A DNA stretch of 52,251 nucleotides from Candidatus Delongbacteria bacterium (GTDB lineage: Bacteria; UBA4055). This document shows, piece after piece, positions 2,421-52,014 of the stretch. How positions within the stretch are numbered: the first letter of the stretch is position 1; each line of letters starts with the position of its first letter. The stretch covers positions 1 to 52,251 of the forward strand of contig JAFGVM010000008.1 in assembly GCA_016937995.1 (NCBI GenBank), read 5' to 3'. The notes under the pieces were generated by a model. The model saw nothing but the letters and a program-made list of their open reading frames with translations, ran no database searches and was not told the origin of the DNA. A program made the position numbers and the translations under genes.

Positions 2421-5204
2421 ATGAAAACATCAGAACACGCAGACAGGACCGAGAAGCTGGTCGGTATCAGAGCTGAGGATATCCACAAATGGATAGACGG
2501 GTTCTTTGATTTTGACGGATTTGAAGATTTCCTTCGTTCAGAGAAACTTACCGGTTATGATCCATATGACCATAGAAAATTCAGGCATTGTATTGAAGCT
2601 TTGGATGAAGCATACCAAACTTTTGCGGATAAATACACCAAAGAGCAGATAAAAGCTGTCTTTGAATCACATATCAAGGATGATTACAACGGATATATTC
2701 CCCACAGAGAAGATTTTGAGAACGGTACTTTCACTGAGCATTACCATGAAAATGATGGCAGGGAAGAAAGTGAATCGATCCTGAGTGAAACTGAACTTTC
2801 GGATTATTTCAAAGGTAAATTCTATACTCAGAGTAAGAAAAAGAATAAAAAAATTACTACCGGTTTTCAGTTAAGGATCGTTCTACCGACAATTCTGGCT
2901 ATAATTTTATTCGTATCGTCAGTTTTTACAGTGATACTACCGGTTTTCAGAAGCAATATGCTCGAAAGAAAGAAAGAAATGATCAAAGAACTTACTGCAG
3001 CCGCTATAAGTGTCATTGAATTTAACATCGACTTGGAAAAGAAAGGAACTCTTACGAGAGAGGAAGCTCAGAATAAATCGATCATTGAAATAGAAGCCAT
3101 GAGATATGGTGATGAGAACAAAGATTATTTCTGGATCACTGATATGTACCCGAGAATGGTAATGCATCCCTATAGAACTGATTTGAAGGGACAGGATCTT
3201 TCAGATTTTAAAGATGTCATGAACAAGAGTGGAAAATATCTCTTTGTTGAGTTCGTAAAGATCGTAAAAGCTCAAAAAGAGGGATATGTAGAATATCTCT
3301 GGCAGTGGAAAGATGATGAGAGCAGGGTCGTTCCAAAGCTTTCTTTCGTTAAAGGTATTCCTGAATGGGAATGGATCATCGGTACAGGTGTATATATTAA
3401 TGATGTAGAAGATGAGATAGCACTTCTTTCAAAAAATATAACGATAATATTTTCATTCATTGCCGGACTTTTAATACTGATATTGACCTATGTGATCTTC
3501 CAGAGCAGGAGAATAAACAACGATCTTCTAAAAGCTGATGCGGGTCTTATTGAAGCTAAAGACAGGTATAAAGCATTAGTAGAAGCATCAAATGAAGGTC
3601 ATATACTTGAAGTCGAAGGTGAAAATGTCTATTCAAATTTCACTTTGCAGAAAATGCTCGGATACAGCGGAAAAGAGATATCCTCTATGAAAACAGTGGA
3701 TCTTTTAGTCCCGGATTCCAAAGTAAATGAAGAAGGTCTGAATCATCTGAAGAAACTTTCTTCAGGGAAAACTATGTCAGGTGAATTTGAAGCTCAGGTA
3801 TTAACAAAGACCGGAGAGATCCTGGATGTAGTCATCACAACTGCAAGGATATTCTTTCTGAAAAAGAAAGGTCATGTGATCTCAGTCAGAAAAATATTGA
3901 GAAAGAAATCCAATGATATGATGATCTCCTACAGTGGAAACCAATATAATCCCGGAAGTATTTTTGCAACAAAGAAGGTCAAAGATATCTGTAGAAAAAC
4001 CACCGAAGAAGACAAGTCTGACACAGAGAAGATTTCATCAGAAACACCGGTATTTGAAGCTCTCGAAGTAATGAAGAATTCTGAAAGAGACAATCTAAAT
4101 GTTATTGATGAAAACGGAAAGATCATCGGAATTGTAGGCTATTATGACATCGCAATGATGTACTCTGGATTGCCTACAGGAATGCTTTTTGAAATTGAGA
4201 ACAGTGAAAATGTAGGTCATGTTATAAGAACTCTCAATAGATTACCGGACCTTATCAAGGAAATGACAGCACAGGGGATAAGATCTGACACTCTCCGGGA
4301 AACTATAAGTAAGATGTATACTGCTGCAATTAAGTTATTTATAAAAATATCTTTAGAAGAATCAGGAGAACCTCCAGTTAAATTTGCATTTCTTTCTCTC
4401 GGAAGTACAGCAAGACAGGAAATGACAATGTTCTCCGATCAGGATAATGCACTGATATTTGAAGATACACAGGATATAGATAAAGCTAAAAAATATTTCA
4501 TCAGGTTTGCCGATAAAGTATGTACAAAGCTGAATAAAGCAGGTTACCCGTTCTGTCCGGGTGGAATTATGGCAGTAAACCCAAAATGGTGCCTGTCATT
4601 GACAGAATGGAAAGATAATTTCACCGAATGGATCGAAAATGCAACACCGGAATCGATCTTAGAGATCAATGTCTTCTTTGATATTCGTTGTGACTACGGA
4701 GAAGAAAAATTAGTTACGGATCTTCAGGATCATATCAAAGAAAAAACAGAGCAGAACCCGGCATTTTTCATAAATTTTGCCCAGAATTGTCTAAGATACA
4801 GAGAACCTTTGAATCTTCTCGGAAGGATCAAAGCCGAAAGCAAAGATGGAGCTAAAACTTTCAATATTAAGGATAATTTGATCCCGATAGTAAATTTTGG
4901 CAGATTATATGCGCTGAAGAACCATGTAACCGAACCGAGTACGGTCAAAAGATTACATGCTCTTTATGAAAAAGATATTCTAAAGGATAAGGAATATCAT
5001 GAAATAGTGTATGTATTCAATCATTTATGGCATTTAAGATTTTATAATCAGATAATATCTCATTCAGAGTTGAAAAAAGCAGATAACGAGCTTGATCTTG
5101 AGCAGTTAACAGATATTGAGAGATTGAATTTAAGGAATGTGCTGGCGGAGATATCGAATTTCCAGGCAAGGATCAGTAGCGATTTTCTGGATGGAACAAT
5201 GTAG
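2421..5204 (+). CDS. Membrane signal-transduction protein: N-terminal His-rich domain, TM, Cache sensor, TM, PAS, CBS, DUF294 nucleotidyltransferase and substrate-binding domain
   Basis: Cache: YFWITDMYPRMVMHP...GYVEYLWQW...PKLSFVK..PEWEWIIGTGVY. Two TM helices flank it. PAS: RYKALVEASNEG...N..LQKMLGYS. CBS: ETPVFEALEVM...VIDENGKIIGIV. NTase motif LGSTARQEMTMFSDQDNALI and GYPFCPGGIMAVNPKW. Confidence 0.85.
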   Translation: MKTSEHADRTEKLVGIRAEDIHKWIDGFFDFDGFEDFLRSEKLTGYDPYDHRKFRHCIEALDEAYQTFADKYTKEQIKAVFESHIKDDYNGYIPHREDFENGTFTEHYHENDGREESESILSETELSDYFKGKFYTQSKKKNKKITTGFQLRIVLPTILAIILFVSSVFTVILPVFRSNMLERKKEMIKELTAAAISVIEFNIDLEKKGTLTREEAQNKSIIEIEAMRYGDENKDYFWITDMYPRMVMHPYRTDLKGQDLSDFKDVMNKSGKYLFVEFVKIVKAQKEGYVEYLWQWKDDESRVVPKLSFVKGIPEWEWIIGTGVYINDVEDEIALLSKNITIIFSFIAGLLILILTYVIFQSRRINNDLLKADAGLIEAKDRYKALVEASNEGHILEVEGENVYSNFTLQKMLGYSGKEISSMKTVDLLVPDSKVNEEGLNHLKKLSSGKTMSGEFEAQVLTKTGEILDVVITTARIFFLKKKGHVISVRKILRKKSNDMMISYSGNQYNPGSIFATKKVKDICRKTTEEDKSDTEKISSETPVFEALEVMKNSERDNLNVIDENGKIIGIVGYYDIAMMYSGLPTGMLFEIENSENVGHVIRTLNRLPDLIKEMTAQGIRSDTLRETISKMYTAAIKLFIKISLEESGEPPVKFAFLSLGSTARQEMTMFSDQDNALIFEDTQDIDKAKKYFIRFADKVCTKLNKAGYPFCPGGIMAVNPKWCLSLTEWKDNFTEWIENATPESILEINVFFDIRCDYGEEKLVTDLQDHIKEKTEQNPAFFINFAQNCLRYREPLNLLGRIKAESKDGAKTFNIKDNLIPIVNFGRLYALKNHVTEPSTVKRLHALYEKDILKDKEYHEIVYVFNHLWHLRFYNQIISHSELKKADNELDLEQLTDIERLNLRNVLAEISNFQARISSDFLDGTM

Positions 5205-5410
5205 CGGCGTAATTTATTACGCCTGGAACATCCAACATACAACATCCCGATAAATCGGGACAGGCAGGAATGTTCAATTTACAAGGATTCAGTACAGACG
5301 CGATTTATCACGTCTAACCACACACACGAAAAATTTTTTTTACAGGAAGATGGGAAGATAAGGAAGAATGTAGGGGTTTAAAATATGTAACACGACACCA
5401 TTTCCCCTAC
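5201..5410 (+). repeat. Cluster of REP-like palindromes
   Basis: GTAGC-GGCGTAAT-TT-ATTACGCC (5201-5223), TCCCGAT-AA-ATCGGGA (5245-5260), GTAC-AGACGCGAT-TT-ATCACGTCT (5292-5315) and GTAGGGG...CCCCTAC (5370-5410). Related copies occur at 12075 and 34405. Confidence 0.7.
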
Positions 5411-5551
5411 CTATTTTATTTGTTAAAATCGTATTTTTATATTATATTATAATCCCTAAGCATATTTAAATTGGTCAATCAAAAAAAATAAATTGAACGA
5501 AAACAGCAAAATTTTCGTTTACACTGAAATAAAAGAATACTTGGAGATAGT

Positions 5552-5794
5552 ATGGACAGAGATAAATTATCAGTACTAGCTATAAGTGACAGCGGATTCA
5601 TTTTTGATCCGGTGACAGGTCATTCATATACTGCAAATGCAACAGGATTAAGAATTTTTGAATTACTTAAAGAAGATAAGTCAGAAGATGAGATAAAAAG
5701 TATTCTGATGGAAGAATTTGAAACAACAGAAGATGAAGTCAGTGTAGATGTGGATGATTTTATTGAGAATTTGAAAAAATATTTTCTCGTGTAA
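5552..5794 (+). CDS. Stand-alone PqqD-family / RiPP recognition element (RRE) protein
   Basis: 80 aa with three short strands then three helices: GFIFDPVTGHSYTANATGLRIFELL...EDEIKSILMEEFET..DEVSVDVDDFIENLKKYFLV, the PqqD pattern. RBS GGAG. Confidence 0.85.
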   Translation: MDRDKLSVLAISDSGFIFDPVTGHSYTANATGLRIFELLKEDKSEDEIKSILMEEFETTEDEVSVDVDDFIENLKKYFLV

Positions 5795-5805
5795 GAAAAT
5801 ATTTT

Positions 5806-5964
5806 TAGTGGTAAGTGATAAGTGGCAAGTGGTCAGTTCGTATGGGCACAATATATTGTGCCCATACGAACCACAACAAACATGAATGTAGGGAACGCCT
5901 AACAGCCGTTCCCATAAATGCAAAAAAAGATTGCCACGGATTGTTCACCAATCCTCGCAATGAC
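5806..5964 (+). repeat. Intergenic repeat cassette: heptamer tandem, 36-bp perfect palindrome, GTAG-REP, GATTGC...GCAATGAC element
   Basis: TAGTGGT/AAGTGAT/AAGTGGC/AAGTGGT (from 5806); GTTCGTATGGGCACAATA|TATTGTGCCCATACGAAC (5836-5871); GTAGGGAACG...CGTTCCC (5888-5913); GATTGCCACGGATT..AATCCTCGCAATGAC (5929-5964). Confidence 0.85.
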
Positions 5965-5976
5965 ATAGGAAAAAGT

Positions 5977-7014
5977 ATGAAAATAGTCGTAGCAGTCAGC
6001 GGTATTAACGCAGTGGACAACCCGGGTCCGGGAACAGGGATCTGCAAAGCATTGAAAGAAAGTGATCTTGATATAAGAACTATCGGATTGGCTTATGATG
6101 CTATGGAACCCGGCGTTTACATGGACAACATTATTGATAAAAGTTATATCATGCCATATCCATCCGGCAGTAGAGAAGCTTTTATCGAAAGGATCAAGCA
6201 TATACATTCAGTAGAAAAAATAGATGTTATAATATCAGCTTTAGACGCAGAATTACCAATCTATATGGATATAGAACCGGTCCTTCAGGAACTTGGAATA
6301 AAGATGCTGATCCCTACAAAGGAAATGTTCAAAACAAGGGATAAGCTGAGGCTGAAAGAATTGGCGGAAACGATCGGTGTAAAAGCTCCCGAATACAGAA
6401 GCTGTACTTCTATCAGAGATCTTCATGATTCAACAGAGAATGTCGGATTTCCATGCATGGTAAAAGGTCCGTTCTACGAAGCTTTCAAAGCAAATAATAT
6501 CTCTGAAGCGGAAGGTTACTTCCATAAGATAGCAATGGCATGGGGCTATCCGATCATCGTACAAAAATTCATTACAGGTGATGAGTATGATGTCATCGGT
6601 TGCGGAGACGGGAAAGGGAACGATATAGGTGTTTTTGCGATCAGGAAAATGACGATCACAAAACTCGGAAAGGTCTGGAATGCGGTTAGCATAAAGAATG
6701 AAAAGCTCATCGAAGCAACAAGGAAGGTAGTTAAAGGTCTTTCCTGGAGAGGTGGATTTGAGTTTGAAGTTCTGGTCGAAAGTTCATCGCAGGATATTTA
6801 TGTACTTGAGATTAATCCAAGATTTCCCGCATGGGTTTATTTTGCAGCGGGATGCGGTATAAATCTTCCAGAGAGAATGGTGAAACTTCTGCTGAATAAG
6901 GAGTATGAAACAAATTCAAATTACGACAGTGGAAAATTAATGATAAGATTCACAAATGAAATGATCAAAGATATAAAGGATTTTGAACAAATATCGACAA
7001 CAGGGGAAACATAA
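5977..7014 (+). CDS. ATP-grasp ligase (carbamoyl-phosphate-synthase-like); true start at 5977, not 5815
   Basis: Start MKIVVAVSGINAVDNPGPG preceded by AGGA. ATP-grasp motifs RDKL, GFPCMVKG, IIVQKFITGDEY, FEFE and VLEINPRFP. The upstream 54 in-frame codons consist of repeat DNA. Confidence 0.88.
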   Translation: MKIVVAVSGINAVDNPGPGTGICKALKESDLDIRTIGLAYDAMEPGVYMDNIIDKSYIMPYPSGSREAFIERIKHIHSVEKIDVIISALDAELPIYMDIEPVLQELGIKMLIPTKEMFKTRDKLRLKELAETIGVKAPEYRSCTSIRDLHDSTENVGFPCMVKGPFYEAFKANNISEAEGYFHKIAMAWGYPIIVQKFITGDEYDVIGCGDGKGNDIGVFAIRKMTITKLGKVWNAVSIKNEKLIEATRKVVKGLSWRGGFEFEVLVESSSQDIYVLEINPRFPAWVYFAAGCGINLPERMVKLLLNKEYETNSNYDSGKLMIRFTNEMIKDIKDFEQISTTGET

Positions 7015-7017
7015 AGA

Positions 7018-7172
7018 TAGGGGTTAGGGATTAGGGGTTAGGGGTTCGTAGAGACGTTGCCCTGCAACGTCTCACAACACACCACGACCAATAATCCCGT
7101 AGGGGCATTATTTATAACGCCCGAAAAACGAAAAAAAAGATTGCCACGGATTTTAAAAATCCTCGCAATGAC
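7018..7172 (+). repeat. Intergenic repeat cassette: (TAGGGGT)4 heptamers, two GTAG-REPs, GATTGC...GCAATGAC element
   Basis: TAGGGGT-TAGGGAT-TAGGGGT-TAGGGGT (7018-7045); GTAGAGACGTTGC..GCAACGTCTC (7048-7073); GTAGGGGCATTAT..ATAACGCCC (7099-7122); GATTGCCACGGATTTTAAAAATCCTCGCAATGAC (7139-7172). Confidence 0.85.
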
Positions 7173-7195
7173 AAACATAAAACACAGGTGACATT

Positions 7196-8548
7196 ATGAA
7201 AAAAGAATATATTAAACCGTACATTAAGAAACAAACAGCCGGAATTATGAATAAATTCGGTGTTTCTTACAATAAAGGTCACAGAGAAGATATTTTAGGT
7301 ATTCCTATCGGGAATTTCACCGATAAATTCGGATCCCCCGTCTTCGTTCTCAGTGAAAAGCTGATCAGAGAAAGATATAGAAAAATATATTCGCACTTTT
7401 CAAGTAAATATCCCAAAGCAAAAATGTCATGGTCGTATAAGACCAATTATCTCGATGCCGTTTGTTCAATAATGCATCAGGAAGGGGAAACTGCAGAAGT
7501 AGTTTCAGACTTTGAATATCAGAAAGCGAGAAGACTGGGAGTTCCAGGGAATAAGATAATTTATAACGGTCCATATAAACCGATAGAATCTTTGAAAGTT
7601 GCTTTCCAAGAAGGAGCAATGGTCAACCTTGATAATTTTGATGAACTTATAAAAGCAGAAGATGCCGCAAAGAGTATTAATAAAAAAGTTCCCGTCGGTA
7701 TCAGAGTGAATATGGACACCGGAGTATATCCTCAGTGGTCAAGATTCGGATTCAATATAGAAAATAACAGTGCATTCAATGCCGTAAAAAGGATCCAGCA
7801 CAGTGAAAATCTTTACTTAGAAGGAATTCATTGTCATATCGGAACTTTCATGCTTGATCCGAATGCGTACAGGGAAGCTGTGAAAAAAGTCGTTGCTCTG
7901 ATGAGAAAGATCGAAATTATGTTCAAAATAAATATCAAATATCTTGATTTCGGTGGAGGTTTTCCTTCAATGAATAAACTGAAAGGAACATATTTACCTC
8001 CTGAAGTTTCAGTTCCACCTGTTGAAGAATTCATTGATGCAGTGGCAGATACCTTATTAGAGGAACTTAAACCGGATGAATATCCTGATGTTTATTTAGA
8101 AACCGGTAGATCTATCATTGATGAAGCAGGCTGGTTGATAACTTCAGTTGATGCAGTGAAAAGGCTTCCCGACGGAACAAAAAGTTATATAATTGATGCA
8201 GGTGTAAATTTATTATATACTTCGACCTGGTACAATTATAAGGTCGAAATTGACAGAGAGCTTCACGGAGCTTATGAAAATTCAGTGATCTACGGACCTC
8301 TCTGCATGAACATTGATGTCGTTGTTGAAAGTGCATTTTTACCACCTTTACCAATAGGTACAAGGCTGATTTTATCTCCAATGGGAGCTTACAATGTTAC
8401 TCAGTGGATGCAATTTATAAGATACAGACCTGCTGTTGCAATGATAATGGAGGATGGTTCACTTGAGGAAATCAGAAGACCTGAAACTCTTGATGATGTG
8501 GTCGGACCTGAAAGAATACCAGAAAAATTAAAGAAGTTTGAGCTATAG
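7196..8548 (+). CDS. Fold-type III PLP-dependent decarboxylase-like enzyme (LysA/BtrK-like), substrate unknown
   Basis: PLP lysine in WSYKTNY; SRFG; HCHIGT; DFGGGF; ETGRS; GPLCMNID; MGAY. Lacks the Cys-Glu/Asp pair of true LysA/ODC, so no gene symbol is assigned. Confidence 0.85.
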   Translation: MKKEYIKPYIKKQTAGIMNKFGVSYNKGHREDILGIPIGNFTDKFGSPVFVLSEKLIRERYRKIYSHFSSKYPKAKMSWSYKTNYLDAVCSIMHQEGETAEVVSDFEYQKARRLGVPGNKIIYNGPYKPIESLKVAFQEGAMVNLDNFDELIKAEDAAKSINKKVPVGIRVNMDTGVYPQWSRFGFNIENNSAFNAVKRIQHSENLYLEGIHCHIGTFMLDPNAYREAVKKVVALMRKIEIMFKINIKYLDFGGGFPSMNKLKGTYLPPEVSVPPVEEFIDAVADTLLEELKPDEYPDVYLETGRSIIDEAGWLITSVDAVKRLPDGTKSYIIDAGVNLLYTSTWYNYKVEIDRELHGAYENSVIYGPLCMNIDVVVESAFLPPLPIGTRLILSPMGAYNVTQWMQFIRYRPAVAMIMEDGSLEEIRRPETLDDVVGPERIPEKLKKFEL

Positions 8549-10624
8549 ATGCGAGAAAAAAATAAAATCATCGTACTATTTGAAGACCTTACGGGGTCAT
8601 TTTCGAATTTGATCTTCATCAAAAGTAAAATTGTCGGACTTTTGCTTTTTGTCTGTACACTTTTCAATCTGAATATTGCATCTCAGGGAATTATCTCTCT
8701 AGTTGTGGCTGTCCTGTTTGCAAGGTTCATCGGCATAAAAAAGGATGACCCGATAAATAAATTATACAGTTATAATGCTCTACTGACCGGTTTCGCAATA
8801 GGATTCTTATTTAAAGTGACTTATCTGTCTATTATTATGACAGTTGGAATGAGCATAATGACAGTTCTTCTAACCTACACATTGAGCTCGGTACTGTATA
8901 ATTTATTCAAGCTGCCGGTACTGAATATCCCATTCACGATCTCAGCAACAATAATTTATTTATCTTCAAGTAAGTACAGTAATTTGATCGTAGATTCGTT
9001 CTACAGGCAGGATCATTTTAATTTAGATTTTATTCCCGGATACATTCAGGGATTGCTCAGAGCAGCAGGAATACTGGTATTCATGCCTTACGATATTATC
9101 GGGATAGTCGTACTTCTGGCAATATTGTTCTATTCCCAGATAACTTTTTTTGTCACGATATTTTCATATTATACAGGGATATTATTTCTGGCATTATTGA
9201 AAGGGAGTCTTCCTTTAGCTTTTGCAGAGATATCTTCATTTAACTTTATACTGGTCGGTATTGCTCTCGGTGGAATGTTCCTTATTCCATCTAAAAGGAC
9301 CTATCTGCTTACTTTCACTGCAGTATTAGCTTCAGTGTTTATCATAGACGCAACTTCAGTATTCTGGGTATCTTTCGGAATACCAGTATTTACACTTCCG
9401 TTCAACCTTACGGTTCTGTTATACATCTATGTCCTGGGCAGTGTGAAATATCCAATGATGAACTATACTTCTCTGGATCAACCTGAAAGATCACTGGTAA
9501 ATTTCCTGAACTACAAAAACCGTTTCGACTGGATCACTCCGTCAATAAATCTTCCATTTATGGGTAGATGGACAGTATATCAAGGATTCAACGGGGAGTG
9601 GACACATAAAGGTGTGTGGAAATATGCCTATGATTTTGTCATTGAGGATGATGAAGGTAAAACTTACAAAGGTAACGGATCAGAAAAAGAGGATTTCTAC
9701 TGTTTCGGTAAACCGGTAATCTCTCCAATTGACGGAACTATTGTTGAGACATATGATGACCTGGAAGATAACGAACCAGAGCAGGTCGATAAGGACAACA
9801 ACTGGGGGAATTATGTAATGATCCATTCCCCGCTGGGATATTACATTGAAATATCTCACCTGAAAAAAGATTCGGTCAAGGTAAAAATAGGAGATTATGT
9901 CACAAAAGGAACACCATTAGCAGAATGTGGTAATTCCGGGTACTCACCTCAACCCCATTTGCATATTCAGCTGCAATATTCTCCATATATAGGTTATGCA
10001 GGATTTGAGTTTAAATTCAACAGTCTAAAGTTAGCTGACAGTGGTACAATAGATCCTGATTTATTAGTCAAGGGCAACAAGGTAATTCCGCTTACATCAT
10101 CCAAAACGATCAGCAGGAAATTTCAGTTCATTCTTGATGAGGAATTCAATTATGATATTTATGAAAATGATGTAAAAGCAGCTGAACTCAGTTTAGCAGT
10201 TAAAATGGAATCTGATGGAACTTATTATTTCTCTGATACTGATGGCAATAGACTTTATTTCGGCAAAGACAAAGACAGATTCGTATTCTTTAAATATTCA
10301 GGTGACAAAAGAACTTATCTCAGATATTTTATGATCGCGATGCCTTCTCTGTCACTAACAGATGAAAATAATTTCACATGGTCCGAATATTTATCTGATG
10401 ATCTTTTGTACTCGAAATTTCCTAAAATACTGAAATCATTCTATCATTCTTCTGATACGACCACTGGCAGGTATACAAAAGTTAAGGAAAATATTATTGA
10501 AGGTAAGATCATTAAGAATAAAACAGGTCTTTTTGATACTGAGATCACACTTTGCGACTTCAAAGGGTTTAAGGATATCATTATAAATGAGAGTGAAAAG
10601 AAGATCTGGATGACAAAAGTATGA
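8549..10624 (+). CDS. Urea-transporter-family membrane domain fused to an M23 metallopeptidase domain plus an uncharacterised C-terminal region
   Basis: About 10 hydrophobic helices with duplicated UT-type motifs (LYSYNALL...LPVLNIPF; SFNFILVG...IPVFTLPF). Then M23 features THKGVWKYAYDF, PVISPIDGTIV, WGNYVMI, SHLK..SVKVKIGDYV and CGNSGYSPQPHLHIQ. Confidence 0.82.
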   Translation: MREKNKIIVLFEDLTGSFSNLIFIKSKIVGLLLFVCTLFNLNIASQGIISLVVAVLFARFIGIKKDDPINKLYSYNALLTGFAIGFLFKVTYLSIIMTVGMSIMTVLLTYTLSSVLYNLFKLPVLNIPFTISATIIYLSSSKYSNLIVDSFYRQDHFNLDFIPGYIQGLLRAAGILVFMPYDIIGIVVLLAILFYSQITFFVTIFSYYTGILFLALLKGSLPLAFAEISSFNFILVGIALGGMFLIPSKRTYLLTFTAVLASVFIIDATSVFWVSFGIPVFTLPFNLTVLLYIYVLGSVKYPMMNYTSLDQPERSLVNFLNYKNRFDWITPSINLPFMGRWTVYQGFNGEWTHKGVWKYAYDFVIEDDEGKTYKGNGSEKEDFYCFGKPVISPIDGTIVETYDDLEDNEPEQVDKDNNWGNYVMIHSPLGYYIEISHLKKDSVKVKIGDYVTKGTPLAECGNSGYSPQPHLHIQLQYSPYIGYAGFEFKFNSLKLADSGTIDPDLLVKGNKVIPLTSSKTISRKFQFILDEEFNYDIYENDVKAAELSLAVKMESDGTYYFSDTDGNRLYFGKDKDRFVFFKYSGDKRTYLRYFMIAMPSLSLTDENNFTWSEYLSDDLLYSKFPKILKSFYHSSDTTTGRYTKVKENIIEGKIIKNKTGLFDTEITLCDFKGFKDIIINESEKKIWMTKV

Positions 10625-12045
10625 TACCAAGGTTAGTTTATTTATTTTTTGTTCTGATATTAAACAGTGTATTGCTTTCTTCTCAGATAGATGAGTTGAT
10701 AAATAGAGGCAACGAATTATACTTTAACGGTGATATTGAAAAAGCTCTGTATAAATTTTACGAAGCGGAAAAATTAAATCCTTTTGACCTAAGACCCAAG
10801 GAGGGTATTTACAACTCCTGTATCTATTTGGGTAAGTACAAAACTGCGAACAAATACGCAAAGAAGCTATTTTCTCAGTCAGCTTCAGATATAAATACCG
10901 ATCGTGTGATATATACTGATGCTTTACTGGGTAAAACAAATGAAGCTGATAAATTACTGGATTCAGATCAAAGTTATGAAAGAAAAAAATATCTATTGTC
11001 TTTGACGGGTTGGGGACTATACAACAGCGGACATTACATAGAAGCGTTAAAATGGTTTGAAAAAGTTAGGAACCATGGTTTTAGGAGTTCCGATTTTTCT
11101 GATGGTTATTCTTTATCCAGAGATAAACTGCGGTCAGAAAGGAAAGTTGCCGACATTTCAATTTCACCATTTATTTTTAACGGAAGTCAGAATTTTGATG
11201 GTGGATTAAACTTAAATTATAATTTCAATTACGGAAAGTATGACAAAAGGTATGACCTCGACCTGGTAATGCAGTACACAGTAATGGACCCCTCGAGAGT
11301 ATCGGAAAACCCCAATTTTTACGGAGATATAGGTCAGTACGAAATATTCTGGAGTTATGAGCGCTTAAATTCTTCCACAAATTCATTTTATAATGCAGGG
11401 AAATTGAGTTTTATAACAAATGACTATGTGAAATTTTCTCTTACGGGTCTAAGTGGTCTGAAATATAGAGTGAACGATCAATGGTTATTCGACTCTTACC
11501 TTTCAGGTTCGATAATAGGTTATGCATACTATGATATTTTAGATGTAAGTATTTTCACTGGAAAGCAACCACCTCCACCAAGAGCTAATTTCAATGAATA
11601 TTACAATACTTTGTTTTCAATGCAGTCAACCACAAATGCAACTTATTACACAGATTATTTTTATATCAATGGAGAAATATCTTTGATAAAATTATTGAAC
11701 TCATCTTATTTTTCTGATATGAGAATTTATGATGACAGAGATGATCTGCCTGATGAAGTGGTCGATTCAGATATAATTGAATATTTCTATACCGTAAGGG
11801 CGGGTATAACGACAAGAAATCTCGATATTTTCGGAAGTTTTTCAGAGGGGAATAATTTTTTATTGAACTCAGATGGCGGTAGGTTTTTGAATACAACAGA
11901 ATTCGGTTATGAAAATGGTTTTAGCGGCGGAATAACTTTTAATAAACTATTTCATAAATGGGTTGTATCATATATATTTTCACAGAGTAATTATGAGGAT
12001 TATAATATAATAACTAACACATTGGTCGCGAGTTACAGCTGGTAA
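10621..12045 (+). CDS. Secreted protein with N-terminal TPR repeats and a probable C-terminal outer-membrane beta-barrel
   Basis: Signal peptide; TPR-like helices (GNELYFNGDIEKALYKFYEAEKLNP; GWGLYNSGHYIEALKWFEKV). The rest is Tyr/Gly-rich alternating strands ending LVASYSW (terminal aromatic, BAM-type). ATGA overlap with the upstream gene. Confidence 0.6.
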   Translation: MIPRLVYLFFVLILNSVLLSSQIDELINRGNELYFNGDIEKALYKFYEAEKLNPFDLRPKEGIYNSCIYLGKYKTANKYAKKLFSQSASDINTDRVIYTDALLGKTNEADKLLDSDQSYERKKYLLSLTGWGLYNSGHYIEALKWFEKVRNHGFRSSDFSDGYSLSRDKLRSERKVADISISPFIFNGSQNFDGGLNLNYNFNYGKYDKRYDLDLVMQYTVMDPSRVSENPNFYGDIGQYEIFWSYERLNSSTNSFYNAGKLSFITNDYVKFSLTGLSGLKYRVNDQWLFDSYLSGSIIGYAYYDILDVSIFTGKQPPPPRANFNEYYNTLFSMQSTTNATYYTDYFYINGEISLIKLLNSSYFSDMRIYDDRDDLPDEVVDSDIIEYFYTVRAGITTRNLDIFGSFSEGNNFLLNSDGGRFLNTTEFGYENGFSGGITFNKLFHKWVVSYIFSQSNYEDYNIITNTLVASYSW

Positions 12046-12074
12046 ATAAAGAATGAATATTCAATATCGAACAC

Positions 12075-12230
12075 GTCCCGATTGATCGGGACAATGTCCA
12101 AATAAAACCGTAGGGAACTGTTTCAAACTGTTCCCGAATGTACACAGGGACGAACCCATGTGTTCGTTTGGAAGGGTTGCCGTTAATGCATAAATAGATT
12201 GCACGGATTTCATAAAATCCTCGCAATGAC
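12075..12230 (+). repeat. Intergenic repeat cassette of REP-like palindromes plus GATTGC...GCAATGAC element
   Basis: GTCCCGAT-TG-ATCGGGAC (12075-12092); GTAGGGAACTGTTT-C-AAACTGTTCCC (12110-12135); GGGACGAACCCATGTGTTCG (about 12147-12166, matching 35537); GATTGCACGGATTT..AAATCCTCGCAATGAC (12197-12230). Confidence 0.8.
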
Positions 12231-12255
12231 AAATAAAAAAATAGGAGAAAAATAG

Positions 12256-12864
12256 ATGAAGTACAAATTAATAACATTATTGATAATATCTGTAAGTTTA
12301 TTTGCTGAGTTAAGTTTCAAGGATATTCAAAATGCATACACGAGTTCATATTCTTACGAAACTGCCCAAAAGTACGATAAGGCCATTTCAAGCTTGAACA
12401 AGGTCATAACTGCTTATCCAAACGGATATACAGTTAATTATAGGCTAGGTTGGTTATATTATCTTGCAGGAAATTATGCTAATTCGGTTAAGCATTTGAA
12501 TGCTGCATTATTGATCTATCCATATTCTGTAGAAGCTTTGAATACTGTAAATTTAGTCAATGTTGCAAAATTGGACTGGGATAAAGTTGAAGCTCAATCA
12601 ATTAACATTTTCAAGATAGATTATTACAATTATTATGCAAATTACTGGTATTCTGTTGCTCTAATGAGGCAGAAAAAATACGATCAGTCCATAAAGATCG
12701 CAAATAAAATGCTTGGTGTTTTTCCTACTAATGTCACTTTTTTAAATATTTTAGCTGAAAGCACATATCTTTTGGGAAGTACTGAAGATGGATTGAAGAT
12801 ATTTGAGTCTGTGGTTATTCTGGATAAGGATAATGAGACAGCGAAATATTATCTGAATAAGTGA
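12256..12864 (+). CDS. Secreted TPR-repeat protein
   Basis: RBS AGGAG; signal peptide ending SLFA; TPRs such as YRLGWLYYLAGNYANSVKHLNAALLIYP and LAESTYLLGSTEDGLKIFESVVILDKDN. Confidence 0.8.
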   Translation: MKYKLITLLIISVSLFAELSFKDIQNAYTSSYSYETAQKYDKAISSLNKVITAYPNGYTVNYRLGWLYYLAGNYANSVKHLNAALLIYPYSVEALNTVNLVNVAKLDWDKVEAQSINIFKIDYYNYYANYWYSVALMRQKKYDQSIKIANKMLGVFPTNVTFLNILAESTYLLGSTEDGLKIFESVVILDKDNETAKYYLNK

Positions 12865-12869
12865 TGAAA

Positions 12870-13343
12870 TCATTCTTCAGTTTTATCTATTGAATGATCA
12901 GAAGCTTCATCTAACGGCTCGATCTTACTTTTTAGAAAGTTATATACTTCATTTCTTTTATCGGAGGGGATCCTGAGCAAAATTCCTCTGAACGACTCCA
13001 TACGTGTGGAAATTCTGTAAGGAGATAAAAATACACCGTTCTTATCAAGGGAAACCTTCTTATAATAGTCATAGTCATGCCTGATCTTATAAAAAAATCT
13101 GTCGACGACCAGTCTATCATCATACAATATATATCTAAAAGAGAAAAATATCTCTGTAAGTGATAAAATCGTAAGGACCAGGGCAATAACTGCATAAGTT
13201 GGATTGAACATATAGTAGATCATGATATTGACGATGAATACAGCTAAAACACCTTTGAAAAAAGTCTTAGGATCGTCCTTCAAAGTATTTTGTACAAAAT
13301 GGTATACTGGTTCTTTTTTATCGGTCATTTCGTTTATCTCCAA
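12870..13343 (-). CDS. Hypothetical membrane protein (2 TM + small soluble domain)
   Basis: 157 aa directly downstream of dut, with RBS GGAG and two hydrophobic segments. Confidence 0.7.
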   Translation of the reverse strand: MEINEMTDKKEPVYHFVQNTLKDDPKTFFKGVLAVFIVNIMIYYMFNPTYAVIALVLTILSLTEIFFSFRYILYDDRLVVDRFFYKIRHDYDYYKKVSLDKNGVFLSPYRISTRMESFRGILLRIPSDKRNEVYNFLKSKIEPLDEASDHSIDKTEE

Positions 13344-44804: not shown

Positions 44805-47800
44805 ATGAAAAAATTCCTTGTTGCAGTTTTAGTTATTTCAGCCATGCTGTCTGCCGCTTTTGTAGATCAGACCAGAGCTAAAAAAGTAGCTGAAAATTAT
44901 TACAAGAACTACGCACCGGCTTCCGCTAAAGGTAACACAGTGCAAAAAGTAGCTGAAAAGTTATATAATGGTCAGGTAACATGGTATGCAGTATCGTTCG
45001 ATCAGGGATTTGTTATCGTTTCAGCTGATGATGCAGTGAGATCGATACTGGGATATTCGTATGATGGTGAGATCACAGAAGATCTTTACAACATGCAAAA
45101 TCCATTCATTAACAGATTTGACGCATATGACAAGCAGATCGTAGAGGTTAGAGAAACAGGTTATGTGGACAATGATGCACAAACTGAGTGGAAAAATATC
45201 GAAAATAATATTTTTCCAAAAGCATCAAAAGCAATTGTTGTTGATGCTTTGGTAGAATCAAGATGGGGTCAGGGATGGCCGATGAACACATTATGTCCTC
45301 TTGACGGTGGTGTTGAAACAGCTGTTGGTTGTGTTGCAACTGCTATGCATCAGATCATGAGATTCCACAGAGCTCCATTGAATGGTATTAGTTCACATTC
45401 ATATTTCTGGACAGGTTCATCAAGTTCAGGAACTTTGGCGGTAACATTCTCTGATTATAGCTATGATTATGATCTTATGCCATTAACAACTTCAAGTGTA
45501 ACACAGGCAGAGCTGGATGAACTTTCAAAATTATCTTATCACTGTGGTGTTTCTGTTGATATGGATTATGATATTTTTGCGAACGGTGGATCCGGTGCAT
45601 ATTCTACAGATGTTGTTTATGCTTTAGAAACTTATTTTGGTTTCTCAACAGATGCGACATATATATCTGTAAATACGCCAACCGACCCTACAGTTCAGGC
45701 AACAAACATACAGACTGATCTTGACAACAGTCGACCAATATATTGGTCAGGCTCAGGTGTCGATGGTGGTCATGCTTTTATTCTTGACGGCTATACAAAT
45801 GACTACTGGTATCATTTTAACTGGGGTTGGAATGGTTCTTCAGATGGTTGGTTCCAGCTTACTTCATTAAATCCAAATAGTGACTTCACATCAAGTCAGG
45901 CAGCAGTATTCCACATATGGAGTAATGAATCCGAATATGCAGAATGGCCGGCACCTTCAAATTTGGGTGGTTCTATTGCCAACGGAGAAGATGTAACATT
46001 AACATGGACAGCTCCAGCTGGTACAAAGTTAGCTACATTGACAGGTTATAAGATATTTAGAGGTGGTGTTCAAATAGCTACTACTAATGCCTCAACAACT
46101 ACTTATCTTGATGCTGACCTTTCAGCCGGATACTATAATTATTTAGTCAAGGCAACTTATTCAGGTCCGGATGGAGAATCCCATATTTCAAATAACTACT
46201 ATGCAGCAATCGTACCTGATGAAAATTACCCAATTCCTTTGTACGTTGAAGCTACAGTAGCACCTTTTACAAGACAGGATGTAGATCTTGTTTGGACAAA
46301 GCCGTTTACACTTCCAGTATATTTCACAGAAGATTGGGAAACAACATCTTTCGAAACAGACTGGCTGACCAGAAGAACAACCAGTGTTTATGGCGGGAAT
46401 AATGATAATTTCCAAGATGGCACTCCAGCTGATCCAAACTGGTTCCATGAAGATGGCTCAGGTTTAGGTGTAGAGTATATTCATTCAGGATCATGGTCTG
46501 CGGCAATTGGTTATACAGCCCCGGATTTTACATGGTTGTTTTCACCGTTTATTGATATAGGTGCAAACTCAGAATTAAGATATTGGGTATGGTGTACAGG
46601 TAATGCTGGAAGTGGTTGGTTGACCAACTACTACATTAACCTTTATAACGGAGATATGACAGAAAGAAACCCTTCAGGTAACGTATACAATGTTGCTCAA
46701 TACATAGGTATAGATGAAGTTTCCGGACAGCAGTATGAAACTGAAGTTGTAGTTGATCTTTCAGCTTACACAGGTAGTTATCGAATTGCCTTTGTTTATG
46801 ATTACACTGACGGATTTCAAATGGCTATAGATGACATTATGGTTGCTGCTGCTTCAAAGCGTGCTCCTGCTGTAAATCCGAATGCGTCACACGAAGTACC
46901 GGAAAGAATTGCAGTTTCTTCGATTTCACCGGATACTTCAGATTTACCGGCAATGAAAGTAACAAAAGCTGCAAAAGGTGACGAACCTACTTCTTATGAC
47001 ATTTATAGGAATGGTTCGTTCGTAGAGAATGTTGCTGTTACCGGTGCTTCGGAAGTTTATTCTGATATTGGTTTCGTTGACGGTAATAACGAATATTTCG
47101 TTAAAGCTCTATATCCTACCGGAACATCTATTGCTTCCGCAAGATCTACAGCTTTCATGGATGCAAATCCAAAACCAGATTATCTTACCGGAATTTTGAA
47201 TGGTTCCAACGATGTGGATCTAAGCTGGTACAAACCTTATTCAAATCCACCGATGTGGTACACATATGCACCAGAATTTGACAGTGCATGGGATTTTATT
47301 GATGGATATGAGACACGTTTGAACAGAACAAGATTCCTAAGTGACCTTGGTTATTTCTATCCTTGTACTGTAGACTCTATAGCAGCAGCATTCTATGAAT
47401 ATACAGATGATCCTTGGCTAAGTGACCAATTCACATTCAAAGTTTACACAACTGATGGTGCCGGAGCGGATTCACTTATCTGGGGTCCAAGTCCTGCTCA
47501 AACAGCTACAAGTGGTTTTTTTAACACATTGGTAGTACCTTCATTATATATGGTCAAAGGATGGTGGGTTGAAATCGATCCTGCTGATAATACAAAAGGA
47601 CATCCTGCTATCATGGTAGACATTCATGATGAAGCAGGTGCAAGTACCAGTTCTTCGACTTACTTAAATGACGGAGCAACAGTTGATGGTTGGTATTCGA
47701 TCAGCTTTGGTGATGAAGGGTATCCTGGAGACTGGATGATCATGAGTTACATTACTTCAGCAACAGCACCTGACGTAACTAAGAGTGGATGGGTCGGTAT

Positions 47801-48308
47801 CACTGAAAGCATGAAATCAACTTCATCTGAGATATTAAATGCGAAAGCGAAGGTTAAAGAAGTTTACGGAAGTGTTGAAAGTAAAATTGATACCAAAGGA
47901 ATGACAAACTATAACATCTACAGGAACGGATCATTACTGGGTACTTCAGCACTTACGACTTATACTGACCTTAATCCAGTTGCGGGTGACAACACTTACT
48001 ACGTAACAGCAGCTTACACTAACCCTGTTGGGGAATCAGCTGGAACTAACTCTGTTGTCATTAATGTAACCGGTGGACCTGTAATTCCGGAAGTTCCTGC
48101 AAATGTCGTTACAAGTATTGTAGGTTCTAACTTGGTAATAGATTGGGATGTATCCGCTGATGCAACAGGATATGATGTTTACTCATCAGATGATCCTTAC
48201 GGAACATTTACATTTACTGCTTCTGTAGGTACAAATCAGTATACCGTTGCAGCAAGCCAGGCGAAACTGTTCTATTACATTATTGCAACAAACACCACAA
48301 AGAAATAG
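44805..48308 (+). CDS. Secreted C10-family (streptopain-like) cysteine protease with prodomain, FN3-like and cleaved-adhesin-like domains and the shared C-terminal domain
   Basis: Signal peptide; prodomain GFVIVSADD...ILGYS; WGQGWP, catalytic VGCVATAM, GGHAFILDGY, HFNWGW. FN3-like VTLTWTAP..GYKIFR; adhesin-like FTEDWE...WLFSP...IAF...IDDI. Confidence 0.9.
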   Translation: MKKFLVAVLVISAMLSAAFVDQTRAKKVAENYYKNYAPASAKGNTVQKVAEKLYNGQVTWYAVSFDQGFVIVSADDAVRSILGYSYDGEITEDLYNMQNPFINRFDAYDKQIVEVRETGYVDNDAQTEWKNIENNIFPKASKAIVVDALVESRWGQGWPMNTLCPLDGGVETAVGCVATAMHQIMRFHRAPLNGISSHSYFWTGSSSSGTLAVTFSDYSYDYDLMPLTTSSVTQAELDELSKLSYHCGVSVDMDYDIFANGGSGAYSTDVVYALETYFGFSTDATYISVNTPTDPTVQATNIQTDLDNSRPIYWSGSGVDGGHAFILDGYTNDYWYHFNWGWNGSSDGWFQLTSLNPNSDFTSSQAAVFHIWSNESEYAEWPAPSNLGGSIANGEDVTLTWTAPAGTKLATLTGYKIFRGGVQIATTNASTTTYLDADLSAGYYNYLVKATYSGPDGESHISNNYYAAIVPDENYPIPLYVEATVAPFTRQDVDLVWTKPFTLPVYFTEDWETTSFETDWLTRRTTSVYGGNNDNFQDGTPADPNWFHEDGSGLGVEYIHSGSWSAAIGYTAPDFTWLFSPFIDIGANSELRYWVWCTGNAGSGWLTNYYINLYNGDMTERNPSGNVYNVAQYIGIDEVSGQQYETEVVVDLSAYTGSYRIAFVYDYTDGFQMAIDDIMVAAASKRAPAVNPNASHEVPERIAVSSISPDTSDLPAMKVTKAAKGDEPTSYDIYRNGSFVENVAVTGASEVYSDIGFVDGNNEYFVKALYPTGTSIASARSTAFMDANPKPDYLTGILNGSNDVDLSWYKPYSNPPMWYTYAPEFDSAWDFIDGYETRLNRTRFLSDLGYFYPCTVDSIAAAFYEYTDDPWLSDQFTFKVYTTDGAGADSLIWGPSPAQTATSGFFNTLVVPSLYMVKGWWVEIDPADNTKGHPAIMVDIHDEAGASTSSSTYLNDGATVDGWYSISFGDEGYPGDWMIMSYITSATAPDVTKSGWVGITESMKSTSSEILNAKAKVKEVYGSVESKIDTKGMTNYNIYRNGSLLGTSALTTYTDLNPVAGDNTYYVTAAYTNPVGESAGTNSVVINVTGGPVIPEVPANVVTSIVGSNLVIDWDVSADATGYDVYSSDDPYGTFTFTASVGTNQYTVAASQAKLFYYIIATNTTKK

Positions 48309-51500: not shown

Positions 51501-52014
51501 AACAGATCCGTTCAAGTCAGCATGGTCATCATCAGATGCAACATATGAGAAGAAACCTGTTATTGACAATTCAGGAAGATTAGTTGGTGATGCAGTTACT
51601 AGCCCTAAAGCAATCGCTCAGTACAACATTTACAGAGAAGGTGTCCAGATTGGTACTTCTGCTACAACCAGTTATACTGATACAAACCCTGTTGCTAACG
51701 TTGACAATACTTACTACGTTAAAGCTGCTTACACTAACCCTGTTGGTGAATCTGCTGCTTCTAACTCTGTAGTAGTTGCCGGCCCTACAGGCGGTTCACC
51801 TGATCCAGATGTTCCTGCTAATGTAGTTACAAGTATAGCAGGTGCTAACTTGGTTATCGACTGGGATGTTTCAGCAAACGCTACAGGATATGATGTTTAT
51901 TCATCAGATGATCCTTATGGAACGTTCACACTAGCAGCTTCTGTTGGTACAAATCAGTATACTGTACCTGCAGCATCAGCTAAGTTATTCTACTACATTG
52001 TTGCAACTAACTAA
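48586..52014 (+). CDS. Second C10-family multidomain cysteine protease (paralog of 44805-48308)
   Basis: Same architecture; WDQVYPWN, VGCVATAA, GVHSFILDGY, HFNWGWGG; near-identical C-terminal domain. Confidence 0.9.
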   Translation: MKRFLIVVLVISAMLSAAFVDQDGAKQVAENYYKNYAPVSAKGNEVKDIFAHKYEGQITWYGVSFDQGFVIVTADDALKPILGYSFDGKLVDPEVRDGGFAFKEWFGYMDKQVLVARKYNYVDAKAQTDWKDIRNNIFPSSSKLTYVDALVKSHWDQVYPWNDLCPEKSIGTWTYVGCVATAASMIMRYHEWPPTGDGSNSYSWDGRTLSETFSNYTFDYTVMNHDVNIEWGLYPEYWETIDMDAAAIQNLAELNYLVGQSFDMNYGDTADGGSGANMSTASTAMNTNWRYVSTYNTVGTPTDPSYIASTIQAELDAKRPWWWAGGVHSFILDGYADDYWYHFNWGWGGYQDGWFQITFLVPDGVGSGGGDGDYTASQIRISLVPDTNPFTAWPAPTGFNGTLVNGEDVQLSWNAASGAQSYNVWKATDMAGAVLLANTASTSYNDNDQVTGEYSYFVSAVYSDGESHHTDSYSVLIEPSVNFPTTRSFAAVADGRTSVDLTWLEPFTGFTNFLNDFEGGVIPADWFQKTTTALPPDYKGSSDNVSDPKPPDRSWFKDDLLDEIRLLDATTAPHIVFRGEYACIFATSATTHLWLMSPNYTFNSEHFFKFWTRFKYGDGASGTQHQIFSVVSYAGDFTDQATPTTITTIGTWDSAIDPTNEWESEWNVSLASLAGQTKHVGIMVEANDNDYYTFTIDDILIGSNSGGIADDPTGIAIYRNGSLVTTETGTATSWTDTNFVDGDNTYYLRALYPTGESLASKWITVNMDANPKPDYLTGVLNGSDDVDLAWYMPYGTPSHWATLIAPENCTTTVDYLEDTDCAKRRAEMKAENLGLYYPVTIDSIAGGFFEWDDDLWGSNTTFVIRLWDGHPLTGYTTTVGDNLLYESGVLTATPGEVYAVDCGTHVLNGTWNVEVETFDTATGHPSTLAGPSTGGINCYFFYTLEDSYNYYISSGPDPLSYCLMAYCTGADPTDPFKSAWSSSDATYEKKPVIDNSGRLVGDAVTSPKAIAQYNIYREGVQIGTSATTSYTDTNPVANVDNTYYVKAAYTNPVGESAASNSVVVAGPTGGSPDPDVPANVVTSIAGANLVIDWDVSANATGYDVYSSDDPYGTFTLAASVGTNQYTVPAASAKLFYYIVATN

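Follow-up and report, generated by a model that had tools for sequence, protein, structure and literature searches.

A urea-transporter fold fused to an M23 peptidase in a widespread, envelope-associated gene cassette

Within contig JAFGVM010000008.1 of Candidatus Delongbacteria bacterium (assembly GCA_016937995.1), the 52,251-nucleotide stretch analyzed here (positions 1 to 52,251 of the forward strand; hereafter the window) contains a gene at 8549..10624 whose product combines a membrane domain of the urea transporter (UT) family with a metallopeptidase domain of family M23. M23 enzymes are normally exported hydrolases of the cell wall, and the textbook assignment of the UT fold is that of a urea channel. 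The locus raises the question of what a pore and a peptidase of these kinds do in one polypeptide. The answer favored here, tentatively and at somewhat less than an even chance, is that the fusion protein, termed UT-M23, would be the inner-membrane component of an envelope-spanning cassette that makes, cuts free, and releases a small amine. The cassette is undescribed. What has been published is the domain architecture alone: UT plus M23 is listed, without context or function, in the available text of a survey of UT domains from 2026 (PMC12998343), and nothing on the parts of the cassette was found in the literature beyond that listing, the supplementary tables of the survey aside.

Both domains of UT-M23 are supported by Pfam above the family cut-offs. 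Family UT (PF03253) matches residues 17-295 (E 4.8e-50; 170.8 bits against a cut-off of 25) over model positions 7-290 of 292, and Peptidase_M23 (PF01551) matches residues 387-476 (E 1.4e-12; 48.1 bits against 28.7); these are the only families detected in the protein by Pfam and NCBIfam. An AlphaFold2 model built with 17 relatives has a mean predicted local distance difference test score (pLDDT) of 86.5 and a predicted template-modeling score of 0.72. Its top match in Foldseek is the UT of Desulfovibrio vulgaris (dvUT; 3k3f, E 1.9e-13, template-modeling [TM] score by target 0.79), with further matches to UTs from human, cattle, and zebrafish (for dvUT and UT-A/UT-B together, E spans about 1e-13 to 1e-10 and TM by target 0.73-0.84) and, after these, to the M23 enzymes ShyA, lysostaphin, Csd1/2, LytM, and StM23 (E 1.5e-6 to 1e-4). 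The preliminary description of this DNA, made from the letters alone, had read the gene as a UT channel fused to an M23 peptidase, provided that profile models would support both families. Profiles and modeled fold now bear this out, and the boundaries that it drew (UT to about 9450, M23 from 9551) were right, position 9551 being the conserved LPF motif at L335. With solved UT channels (dvUT 3K3F/3ME1, UT-A, and UT-B), UT-M23 shares two inverted halves with Pa and Pb, ten transmembrane helices, both LPxxTxPF pore signatures (retained in the form LPxx[T/N]xPF), Y(3a)/F(3b), and a predicted topology with both termini inside. Unlike these channels, it carries an added enzyme module of ~390 amino acids, predicted to be cytoplasmic.

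A cytoplasmic location of this module, that is, of the M23 domain and the C-terminal beta domain (C-domain) behind it, is well supported by comparisons of sequence and fold. The UT profile spans the entire fold, including the helix after 5b, and its alignment extends to about residue 317-329. According to the available part of PMC11589576, solved UTs have their N- and C-termini on the intracellular side and an extracellular loop between their two halves; their C1 helix, whose position is taken in UT-M23 by the amphipathic pore-peptidase linker, is likewise intracellular. A complete UT fold with the intracellular C-terminus of the solved proteins would thus place the M23 domain in the cytoplasm. 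When loops were assigned by solved-UT topology across 116 full-length relatives, lysine plus arginine averaged 8.25 on the cytoplasmic loops and 3.09 on the other side, and the short cytoplasmic loops were the richer in these residues in 105 of the 116 sequences, a positive-inside bias that argues for the orientation with both termini inside. Past residue 300, the window protein has no hydrophobic segment (maximum KD19 hydrophobicity 0.68), and a KD19 of 1.6 is reached in this region by two of the 116 relatives. Furthermore, the N-terminal extensions of relatives, which run up to 56 residues, are hydrophilic and have no signal-like segment.

Natural fusions point to the same side. Nine long forms with a tail after the C-domain were examined from the 150 C-domain matches listed. 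In seven of them, 22-47 residues past the C-domain and following a basic linker, there is one hydrophobic helix (KD19 2.0-2.6) and, after it, one or two tetratricopeptide repeat (TPR) domains of the type found in the 202-aa exported protein of the cassette (TPR202; E 1e-14 to 1e-26). These seven comprise three full-length proteins (1073-1085 aa, on separate contigs, one of them named Pirellulales) and four fragments; the remaining long forms are a sequence that seems to be frameshifted (peak KD19 0.46) and another whose tail is of a different kind, with several helices. Because the free TPR partner has an export signal and a single helix separates the modules in the fusions, the M23/C-domain part and the TPR part should lie on opposite sides of the membrane, which puts the former, opposite the exported TPR module, in the cytoplasm. 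The suggestion of the preliminary description that, given a UT-like topology, the M23 domain faces the cytoplasm, where peptidoglycan would be out of its reach, thus finds support in the UT fold, the positive-inside bias, the hydrophobicity profile, and the fusions. The full-length proteins of this kind (P0210, P0228, and P0230; 1073-1085 aa) are of Planctomycetota type and unite in one chain UT-M23, the C-domain, a lone transmembrane helix, and two modules resembling TPR202.

Split genes were also considered as evidence on topology and were largely dropped. Stand-alone M23/C-domain proteins without a signal peptide occur (P0123, P0126, and P0128). P0123 clusters at 90% identity with a full-length protein of 707 aa, and its contig also carries a 330-aa member, the other half, so that a frameshift is likely. 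Distant members of the M23 subfamily include secreted, membrane-anchored, and signal-less forms, and the subfamily alone therefore does not decide the compartment.

The peptidase domain itself retains every M23 catalytic residue. In the alignment of 116 relatives, from which all column counts of the family are taken, H353, D362, H437, C460, H470, and H472 are each present in 116/116. H470 and H472 form the HxH motif and H437 is the third histidine, of 'MHL' type; these align with lysostaphin and Csd. In place of HxxxD, the first motif reads H353-x8-D362, with K358 at the canonical position (D minus 4). The HxH motif and the lengthened first motif had both been picked out in the preliminary description, and both are present and invariant in the 116 relatives. 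Sequence alignments to solved M23s begin downstream of the first motif, and it is from invariance and fold match that H353 and D362 are inferred to be zinc ligands. That none of the catalytic residues varies suggests that the domain works as an enzyme and does not serve as a plug. With the M23 endopeptidases MepM, ShyA, LytM, lysostaphin, and Csd1-3, UT-M23 shares the fold, HxH, and the 'MHL' histidine. However, its first motif is H-x8-D and is followed by a further insertion of ~22 aa, it has an invariant cysteine ahead of the GNSG loop, it has no signal peptide and is predicted to be cytoplasmic, and it scores far below the cut-off of every curated wall-hydrolase model in NCBIfam (for example, MepM at 23 bits against 341). 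By these features, UT-M23 would not be a member of the wall hydrolases. Separately, the M23 part (window 9539-10621, residues 54-146 of that stretch) gives a faint match (E 0.022) to NCBIfam PRK06148, a model for a multidomain 'hypothetical protein' of ~1000 aa; this match hints at M23-like domains in other, presumably cytoplasmic, fusion proteins.

Behind the peptidase lies the C-domain, which the preliminary description had noted as ~200 aa of unknown fold. The last ~190 aa indeed have no family in Pfam, are conserved along their full length in relatives, and are confidently modeled (pLDDT 90.3 when the domain is modeled alone). Foldseek gives weak LolA/LolB/YmcC-like matches (best E 6.8e-4, TM 0.25-0.38), and VIA-align finds its best matches (Z 9.6) in a Bacteroides-group lipoprotein (4fvs) and the lipid-binding sheet of ApoB, with Z 6.3-7.3 for LolA-type chains. 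The sole lead from an Atlas look-up (0.76) was below the usable level. A profile of the C-domain matches 428 proteins at E <= 0.001 among 1.84 billion representatives, and nearly all of the 150 matches listed have the domain at ~495-690 of proteins of ~690 aa, or are fragments, which indicates that the domain belongs to the UT-M23 family.

Is the pore still a urea channel? The urea-permeation motif of UTs is Q(Pb)-T(5b)-T(5a)-Q(Pa), as given in the available part of PMC11589576. The pore columns of UT-M23 were mapped via HMMER alignments to human UT-A and dvUT (dvUT residues 8-328), and only T(5b) of this motif is retained in the family. The Q(Pa) column of the 116 relatives holds E28/T20/N13/M13/Y11/S10 and others, whereas the Q(Pb) column is hydrophobic or small (I37/V20/A20/T18); no glutamine appears in either among the eight commonest residues, which cover 111 and 112 of the 116 sequences, respectively. 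T(5a) has become N85/S31, and T(5b) is kept in 103/116. Residues of the scaffold are retained, with Y(3a) in 112, N(3a) in 115, F(3b) in 114, and N(3b) in 116 of 116. UT-M23 thus differs from the UT channels in lacking the urea-binding glutamines and in having N or S at T(5a). Moreover, against the NCBIfam equivalog model urea_trans_yut (TIGR03441) it scores 89.1 bits, below the cut-off of 274.6.

Genome content agrees with the columns. Urease alpha was not found in the window's own genome, which is 97% complete and has a single UT gene, the one for UT-M23, nor was it found in five other cassette genomes of different lineages, of no stated completeness, making six of six tested. The loss of both urea-binding glutamines together with the lack of urease in these six genomes indicates that urea is probably not the cargo of the pore. 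Judged by the residues kept and exchanged, the UT fold is kept as a pore but retuned, and UT-M23 is probably not a urea transporter in function.

UT-M23 is encoded in a conserved cassette of six genes, found in hundreds of bacterial species that have two membranes, in the order PqqD-like protein, ATP-grasp ligase, pyridoxal phosphate (PLP) decarboxylase, UT-M23, TPR-barrel outer-membrane protein, and periplasmic TPR protein. A word-indexed search yielded 1192 relatives of UT-M23 at E <= 0.001 among 8000 scored candidates; the 120 relatives listed are 39-88% identical over the whole length and have both Pfam domains, except for one partial sequence. Counting one genome for each species, a relative of UT-M23 is encoded in 409 out of 440 pattern matches. 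Cassette taxa include Aquificota, Campylobacterota, lineages of the Bacteroidota group, Desulfobacterota, Planctomycetota, Verrucomicrobiota, and Gammaproteobacteria, more than ten phyla in all. When 80 loci were compared by tblastn with the proteins of the window, UT-M23 was adjoined by the decarboxylase in 66, the 202-aa TPR protein in 65, the ATP-grasp ligase in 63, and the PqqD-like protein in 59, and no further conserved gene family was found in these loci (beyond shadow open reading frames [ORFs]). Of the 14 loci without the decarboxylase, eight have less than 1.7 kb of contig upstream and six have at least 3.8 kb. The order PqqD, ATP-grasp, decarboxylase, UT-M23, and then exported proteins holds in 20/20 selected loci from many phyla; in a few loci, the enzymes lie downstream of the envelope genes (L019, L050, and L054) or on the opposite strand (L068). 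In the window, the decarboxylase stop TAG directly abuts the UT-M23 ATG, and the UT-M23 stop overlaps the start of the next gene as ATGA; from these junctions, the cassette genes are translationally coupled.

The enzymes encoded upstream of UT-M23 suggest the kind of chemistry to which it is linked. The decarboxylase has as its nearest solved chain the N-citrylornithine decarboxylase FslC (7kh2, 3.6e-57), followed by LysA (1.3e-43), and BtrK is also related; the FslC and lysA models of NCBIfam match it below cut-off. Its mean column identity is 72% in 20 sequences. Its N-terminal extension of ~25 aa (7196-7270), which precedes the LysA-like core, has the consensus K.YEKP.I.K...G.MNKFG, in which Y5, P8, K20, and G22 are invariant in the 20 sequences. 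As an idea only, this tail might be bound as a ligand by the PqqD-like protein or be cut by the peptidase. BtrK acts on glutamate bound to a carrier. Since the nearest relative, FslC, uses N-acylated ornithine and the related BtrK a carrier-bound substrate, the cassette decarboxylase may act on a conjugate. The ATP-grasp ligase, whose start at 5977 (MKIVVAV) was set by comparison with relatives (the mechanical ORF begins at 5815), matches the NCBIfam models of the uncharacterized 'CPS-like' PRK12767 group below cut-off, and its nearest solved chain is 2pn1. The NCBIfam models for lasso-type and HPr-rel-A PqqD chaperones likewise match the 80-aa PqqD-like protein below cut-off; as a PqqD/RRE, this protein is typical. 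No conserved small ORF was found upstream of PqqD, either by clustering in 49 loci or by eye in 53 loci; a precursor may be encoded elsewhere.

These enzymes recall, without reproducing, known pathways. Ligation and decarboxylation on conjugates are known from FslA and FslC, for rhizoferrin, and from BtrI, BtrJ, and BtrK, for the side chain of butirosin. The cassette decarboxylase is closest to FslC and related to BtrK, and, as with BtrJ and BtrI, an amide-forming ligase is paired with a small protein. However, the cassette ligase is an ATP-grasp enzyme of PRK12767 type and not an NRPS-independent siderophore (NIS) synthetase, the small protein is PqqD-like and not an acyl carrier protein, and further parts of the cassette are a pore-peptidase and a pair of exported proteins. 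The pathways of pyrroloquinoline quinone (PQQ), mycofactocin, and the pearlins build small molecules on a peptide scaffold, with an RRE and a releasing peptidase. The cassette also has a PqqD-type protein, modifying enzymes, and a putative releasing peptidase, whereas no gene for a scaffold peptide was found near it, its other enzymes differ, and its peptidase is fused to a channel.

Downstream of UT-M23, the products appear to extend the system to the outer membrane. For the 474-aa protein encoded next, the leads obtained from the Atlas are barrels of the TPR+YaiO and TPR+BcsC_C kinds; residues 171-472 of this protein match a cluster of stand-alone proteins of 280 aa (TM 0.84). In other loci, a signal-bearing protein of ~290 aa stands at the position of the barrel. 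The first downstream ORF has a signal-like N-terminus in 55/66 loci and a C-terminal F, W, or Y in 43/66; in Pfam, the barrel proteins give only sub-threshold porin or outer-membrane protein hints. TPR-plus-barrel pairs are best known from export systems. Like PgaA, BcsC, AlgK/AlgE, and the YaiO-type barrels, the cassette has an exported TPR module joined to or adjoining an outer-membrane barrel, downstream of an inner-membrane component. However, the similarity of its TPR regions to PgaA and BcsC is weak and below cut-off, supplemented by the Atlas leads, and, in contrast to synthase-dependent secretion, the cassette encodes no glycosyltransferase or polymer synthase. Coordinates of the cassette genes and of the parts of UT-M23 are collected in Table 1.

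Table 1. Positions in the window of the cassette genes and of the parts of UT-M23
Feature	Coordinates	Strand	Basis
PqqD-like (RRE-type) protein, 80 aa, no signal peptide	5552..5794	+	Pfam PqqD, E 1.7e-12
ATP-grasp ligase, 345 aa	5977..7014	+	Pfam ATP-grasp_3, ATPgrasp_Ter, CPSase_L_D2
Fold-type III PLP decarboxylase, 450 aa	7196..8548	+	Pfam Orn_Arg_deC_N and Orn_DAP_Arg_deC
UT-M23-C-domain fusion gene, 691 aa	8549..10624	+	ORF list, Pfam, relatives over full length
UT-fold membrane domain (Pa, 1a-5a, extracellular loop, Pb, 1b-5b)	8597..9433	+	Pfam, Foldseek
Amphipathic helix, aa 312-325, pore-peptidase linker at the UT C1 position	9482..9523	+	DSSP on the model (H312-325)
M23 metallopeptidase domain, aa 335-499, two insertions around the first motif	9551..10045	+	Pfam, Foldseek; conserved LPFxGxWTV start
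Span of invariant residues H353 (9605), D362 (9632), H437 (9857), C460 (9926), H470 (9956), H472 (9962)	9605..9964	+	
C-terminal beta domain, aa 500-691, curved antiparallel open barrel	10046..10621	+	Predicted model, family profile
Exported TPR + beta-barrel outer-membrane protein, 474 aa	10621..12045	+	Signal-like N-terminus, TPR matches, C-terminal ...YSW
Exported TPR protein, 202 aa	12256..12864	+	Signal-like N-terminus, TPR families

Loci that lack the usual enzymes narrow the conserved function. A search of five genomes whose UT-M23 locus is without them gave a cassette-type decarboxylase (55-65% identity) at another place in three of the genomes, and only a LysA-like match (29% identity) in two, one of them Shewanella surugensis. 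In the S. surugensis locus (L080, 8983-16135), UT-M23 and a TPR protein are followed by a 912-aa Orn/Lys/Arg decarboxylase of fold type I (OKR_DC_1; LdcC-like, 9e-65, below cut-off) and then by a 510-aa ATP-grasp protein of PRK06524 type, with no PqqD. A relative of UT-M23 is present in 8 of 300 sampled gammaproteobacterial genomes; among seven gammaproteobacterial loci whose flanks were compared (six of these and L080), five have the classic cassette and two, L080 and L096, the variant. The second variant locus (L096, 2368-11053) encodes UT-M23, a 307-aa signal-bearing protein ending in ...ASF, a TPR protein, an OKR_DC_1 decarboxylase, a PRK06524-type ATP-grasp protein, and a protein of the AAT/peptidase-C45 family, again without PqqD. 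The UT-M23 proteins of the two variant loci are 44% identical. Both enzymes are thus replaced by unrelated analogues while the envelope genes are kept, and the chemistry conserved would be decarboxylation of a basic amino acid and ATP-dependent ligation. This points to a conserved function in which basic-amino-acid decarboxylation and ATP-dependent amide formation feed the pore-peptidase or are served by it. Since the variant cassettes have no PqqD, the PqqD-like protein would not be indispensable.

A pathway can be proposed in which these parts act together. The ligase would join a carboxylate to a basic amino acid of ornithine, lysine, or diaminopimelate type, and the decarboxylase would convert the conjugate to an amide bearing an amine. 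The PqqD-like protein would hold a segment of a peptide or protein as scaffold or docking site, the N-terminal tail of the decarboxylase being a candidate for this segment. At the mouth of the pore, the M23 domain would hydrolyze one amide bond of the intermediate, and the small product would then cross the inner membrane via the UT-like channel and the outer membrane via the TPR/barrel pair. In the more specific form of an envelope-spanning metabolite release machine, with an amine or amide built on a protein or peptide handle, freed by a cytoplasmic M23 domain, and exported through the UT-fold pore and the TPR/barrel proteins, the proposal is possible though rather doubtful.

Several points weigh against this pathway. 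Every chemical step is drawn from family membership; the class of substrate, the cleavage, and the direction in which the product moves are all inferred. UT channels are passive, so the pore does not fix the direction of transport. No conserved small ORF that could be the scaffold peptide is present in the loci surveyed, and the existence of a variant without PqqD means that a peptide scaffold is not essential to the envelope module. As a rule, M23 and LolA-like folds are found in the periplasm, whereas the case for a cytoplasmic module is built on sequence and fusions, to which the split forms without a signal peptide add only weak evidence. Finally, the assignment of H353 and D362 as zinc ligands rests on invariance.

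Other explanations divide the same evidence differently. The flow could be reversed, such that the barrel/TPR pair and the pore import an amide or ureido compound, the M23 domain hydrolyzes it, and the resulting fragments go on to the decarboxylase and ligase for processing. A cytoplasmic peptidase would fit import equally well, an outer-membrane barrel can be a specific porin, and UT channels are passive and bidirectional, according to the available part of PMC11589576. An ATP-consuming ligase, however, would be unusual in a catabolic route, the relatives FslC and BtrK are biosynthetic, and the known TPR-plus-barrel pairs speak mostly for export; uptake with catabolism is therefore unlikely. 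The preliminary description had suggested a peptidase-coupled transporter that releases a ligated product or a leader, in analogy to the peptidase-containing ATP-binding cassette (ABC) transporters (PCATs). A PCAT carries a cytoplasmic peptidase domain on a membrane exporter, and UT-M23 likewise has a peptidase, by prediction, on the cytoplasmic side of a membrane protein and is encoded with peptide-handling proteins. In a pathway for ribosomally synthesized peptides with post-translational modifications (RiPPs), a peptide bound by the PqqD/RRE protein would be modified by the ligase and the decarboxylase, the M23 domain would cut off its leader, and the membrane domain would export it; M23 enzymes often cut at glycine, as do the double-glycine leader peptidases. 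This part of the earlier proposal is not supported. The peptidase is M23 and not C39, a passive UT pore takes the place of an ABC pump, and no gene for a leader peptide, no conserved precursor ORF upstream of PqqD, and no other conserved gene was found in the loci surveyed, while the variant cassettes are without PqqD altogether. The UT scaffold is conserved, and solved UTs have a narrow, single-file pore (available part of PMC11589576), which makes a peptide an unlikely cargo by its size. By these differences UT-M23 would not be a member of the PCATs, and a RiPP exporter of this kind has little probability; the weaker form of the idea, in which a peptidase would release a small ligated product where the channel opens, stays the best, if putative, reading.

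UT-M23 might instead be an ordinary urea channel that is merely regulated by its M23 and C-terminal domains. The homology and fold of the UT domain are strong, and the available text of the 2026 survey suggests regulation for UT fusions in general (PMC12998343). Nevertheless, both urea-binding glutamines are lost family-wide, the equivalog score is below its cut-off, and urease was not found in any of the six genomes tested. The fully conserved catalytic residues, moreover, speak for an enzyme rather than a plug, and the tight linkage to a ligase and a decarboxylase is at odds with a urea channel, leaving this explanation very little probability. Least probable of all is a MepM-like peptidoglycan hydrolase in the periplasm, held by an inverted UT-like anchor and remodeling the wall around the TPR/barrel complex. 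It would suit the usual exported role of M23 enzymes, the weak matches to MepM, ShyA, DipM, and Pgp models, the faint likeness of the C-domain to periplasmic LolA/YmcC folds, and the exported partners in the operon. It is opposed by the positive-inside bias, by hydrophilic N-terminal extensions that contain no extra transmembrane segment, by the scores far below the wall-hydrolase cut-offs, and, above all, by the single-helix fusions that put M23 opposite the exported TPR module.

Several features around the cassette were noted in passing. The spacer between the PqqD and ATP-grasp genes is unusually long in the window, 182 nt in place of the 10-40 nt of most relatives, and contains a perfect 34-nt palindrome (5837-5870) that is unique in the window. 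The intergenic stretches at 7015-7195 and 5205-5340 hold short repeats resembling GGGGTTAGGG and small hairpins of the form N6-ATTTAT-N6, which may together be a small repeated intergenic element. A scan of 5000-13000 with Rfam gave only two chance-level snoRNA matches, both below the gathering score, and a promoter and terminator scan gave nothing above shuffled sequences. Directly upstream and on the same strand (2421-5204) is the gene for a 927-aa protein with a Cache sensor, PAS, CBS, and a DUF294 nucleotidyltransferase pair; among the 80 loci, L028 alone has a homologue (80% identity) on the downstream side of the cassette. Convergent on the end of the cassette (12870-13343, minus strand) is an ORF of 157 aa without a Pfam family, which has a weak phosphatidylcholine-synthase-like match in NCBIfam (E 0.0017). 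Farther away, two tandem proteins of ~1150 aa (44805-48308 and 48586-52014) each have an inhibitor domain of Spi type at the N-terminus and, behind it, a C10 (streptopain-like) cysteine peptidase domain.

If the metabolite release machine is real, an M23 enzyme would for the first time have a role in the cytoplasm that does not concern peptidoglycan, and the UT fold would for the first time serve a dedicated pathway with a cargo other than urea. If the proposed pathway is true, two textbook assignments, M23 as exported wall hydrolase and UT as urea channel, would widen. From the natural fusions comes a definite predicted topology, the variant cassette restricts the chemistry to ligation plus the decarboxylation of basic amino acids, and the whole operon is less than 8 kb. 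On that reading, a small-molecule pathway not recognized so far, with its own route across both membranes, would occur in over 400 of the species sampled, spread over more than ten phyla.

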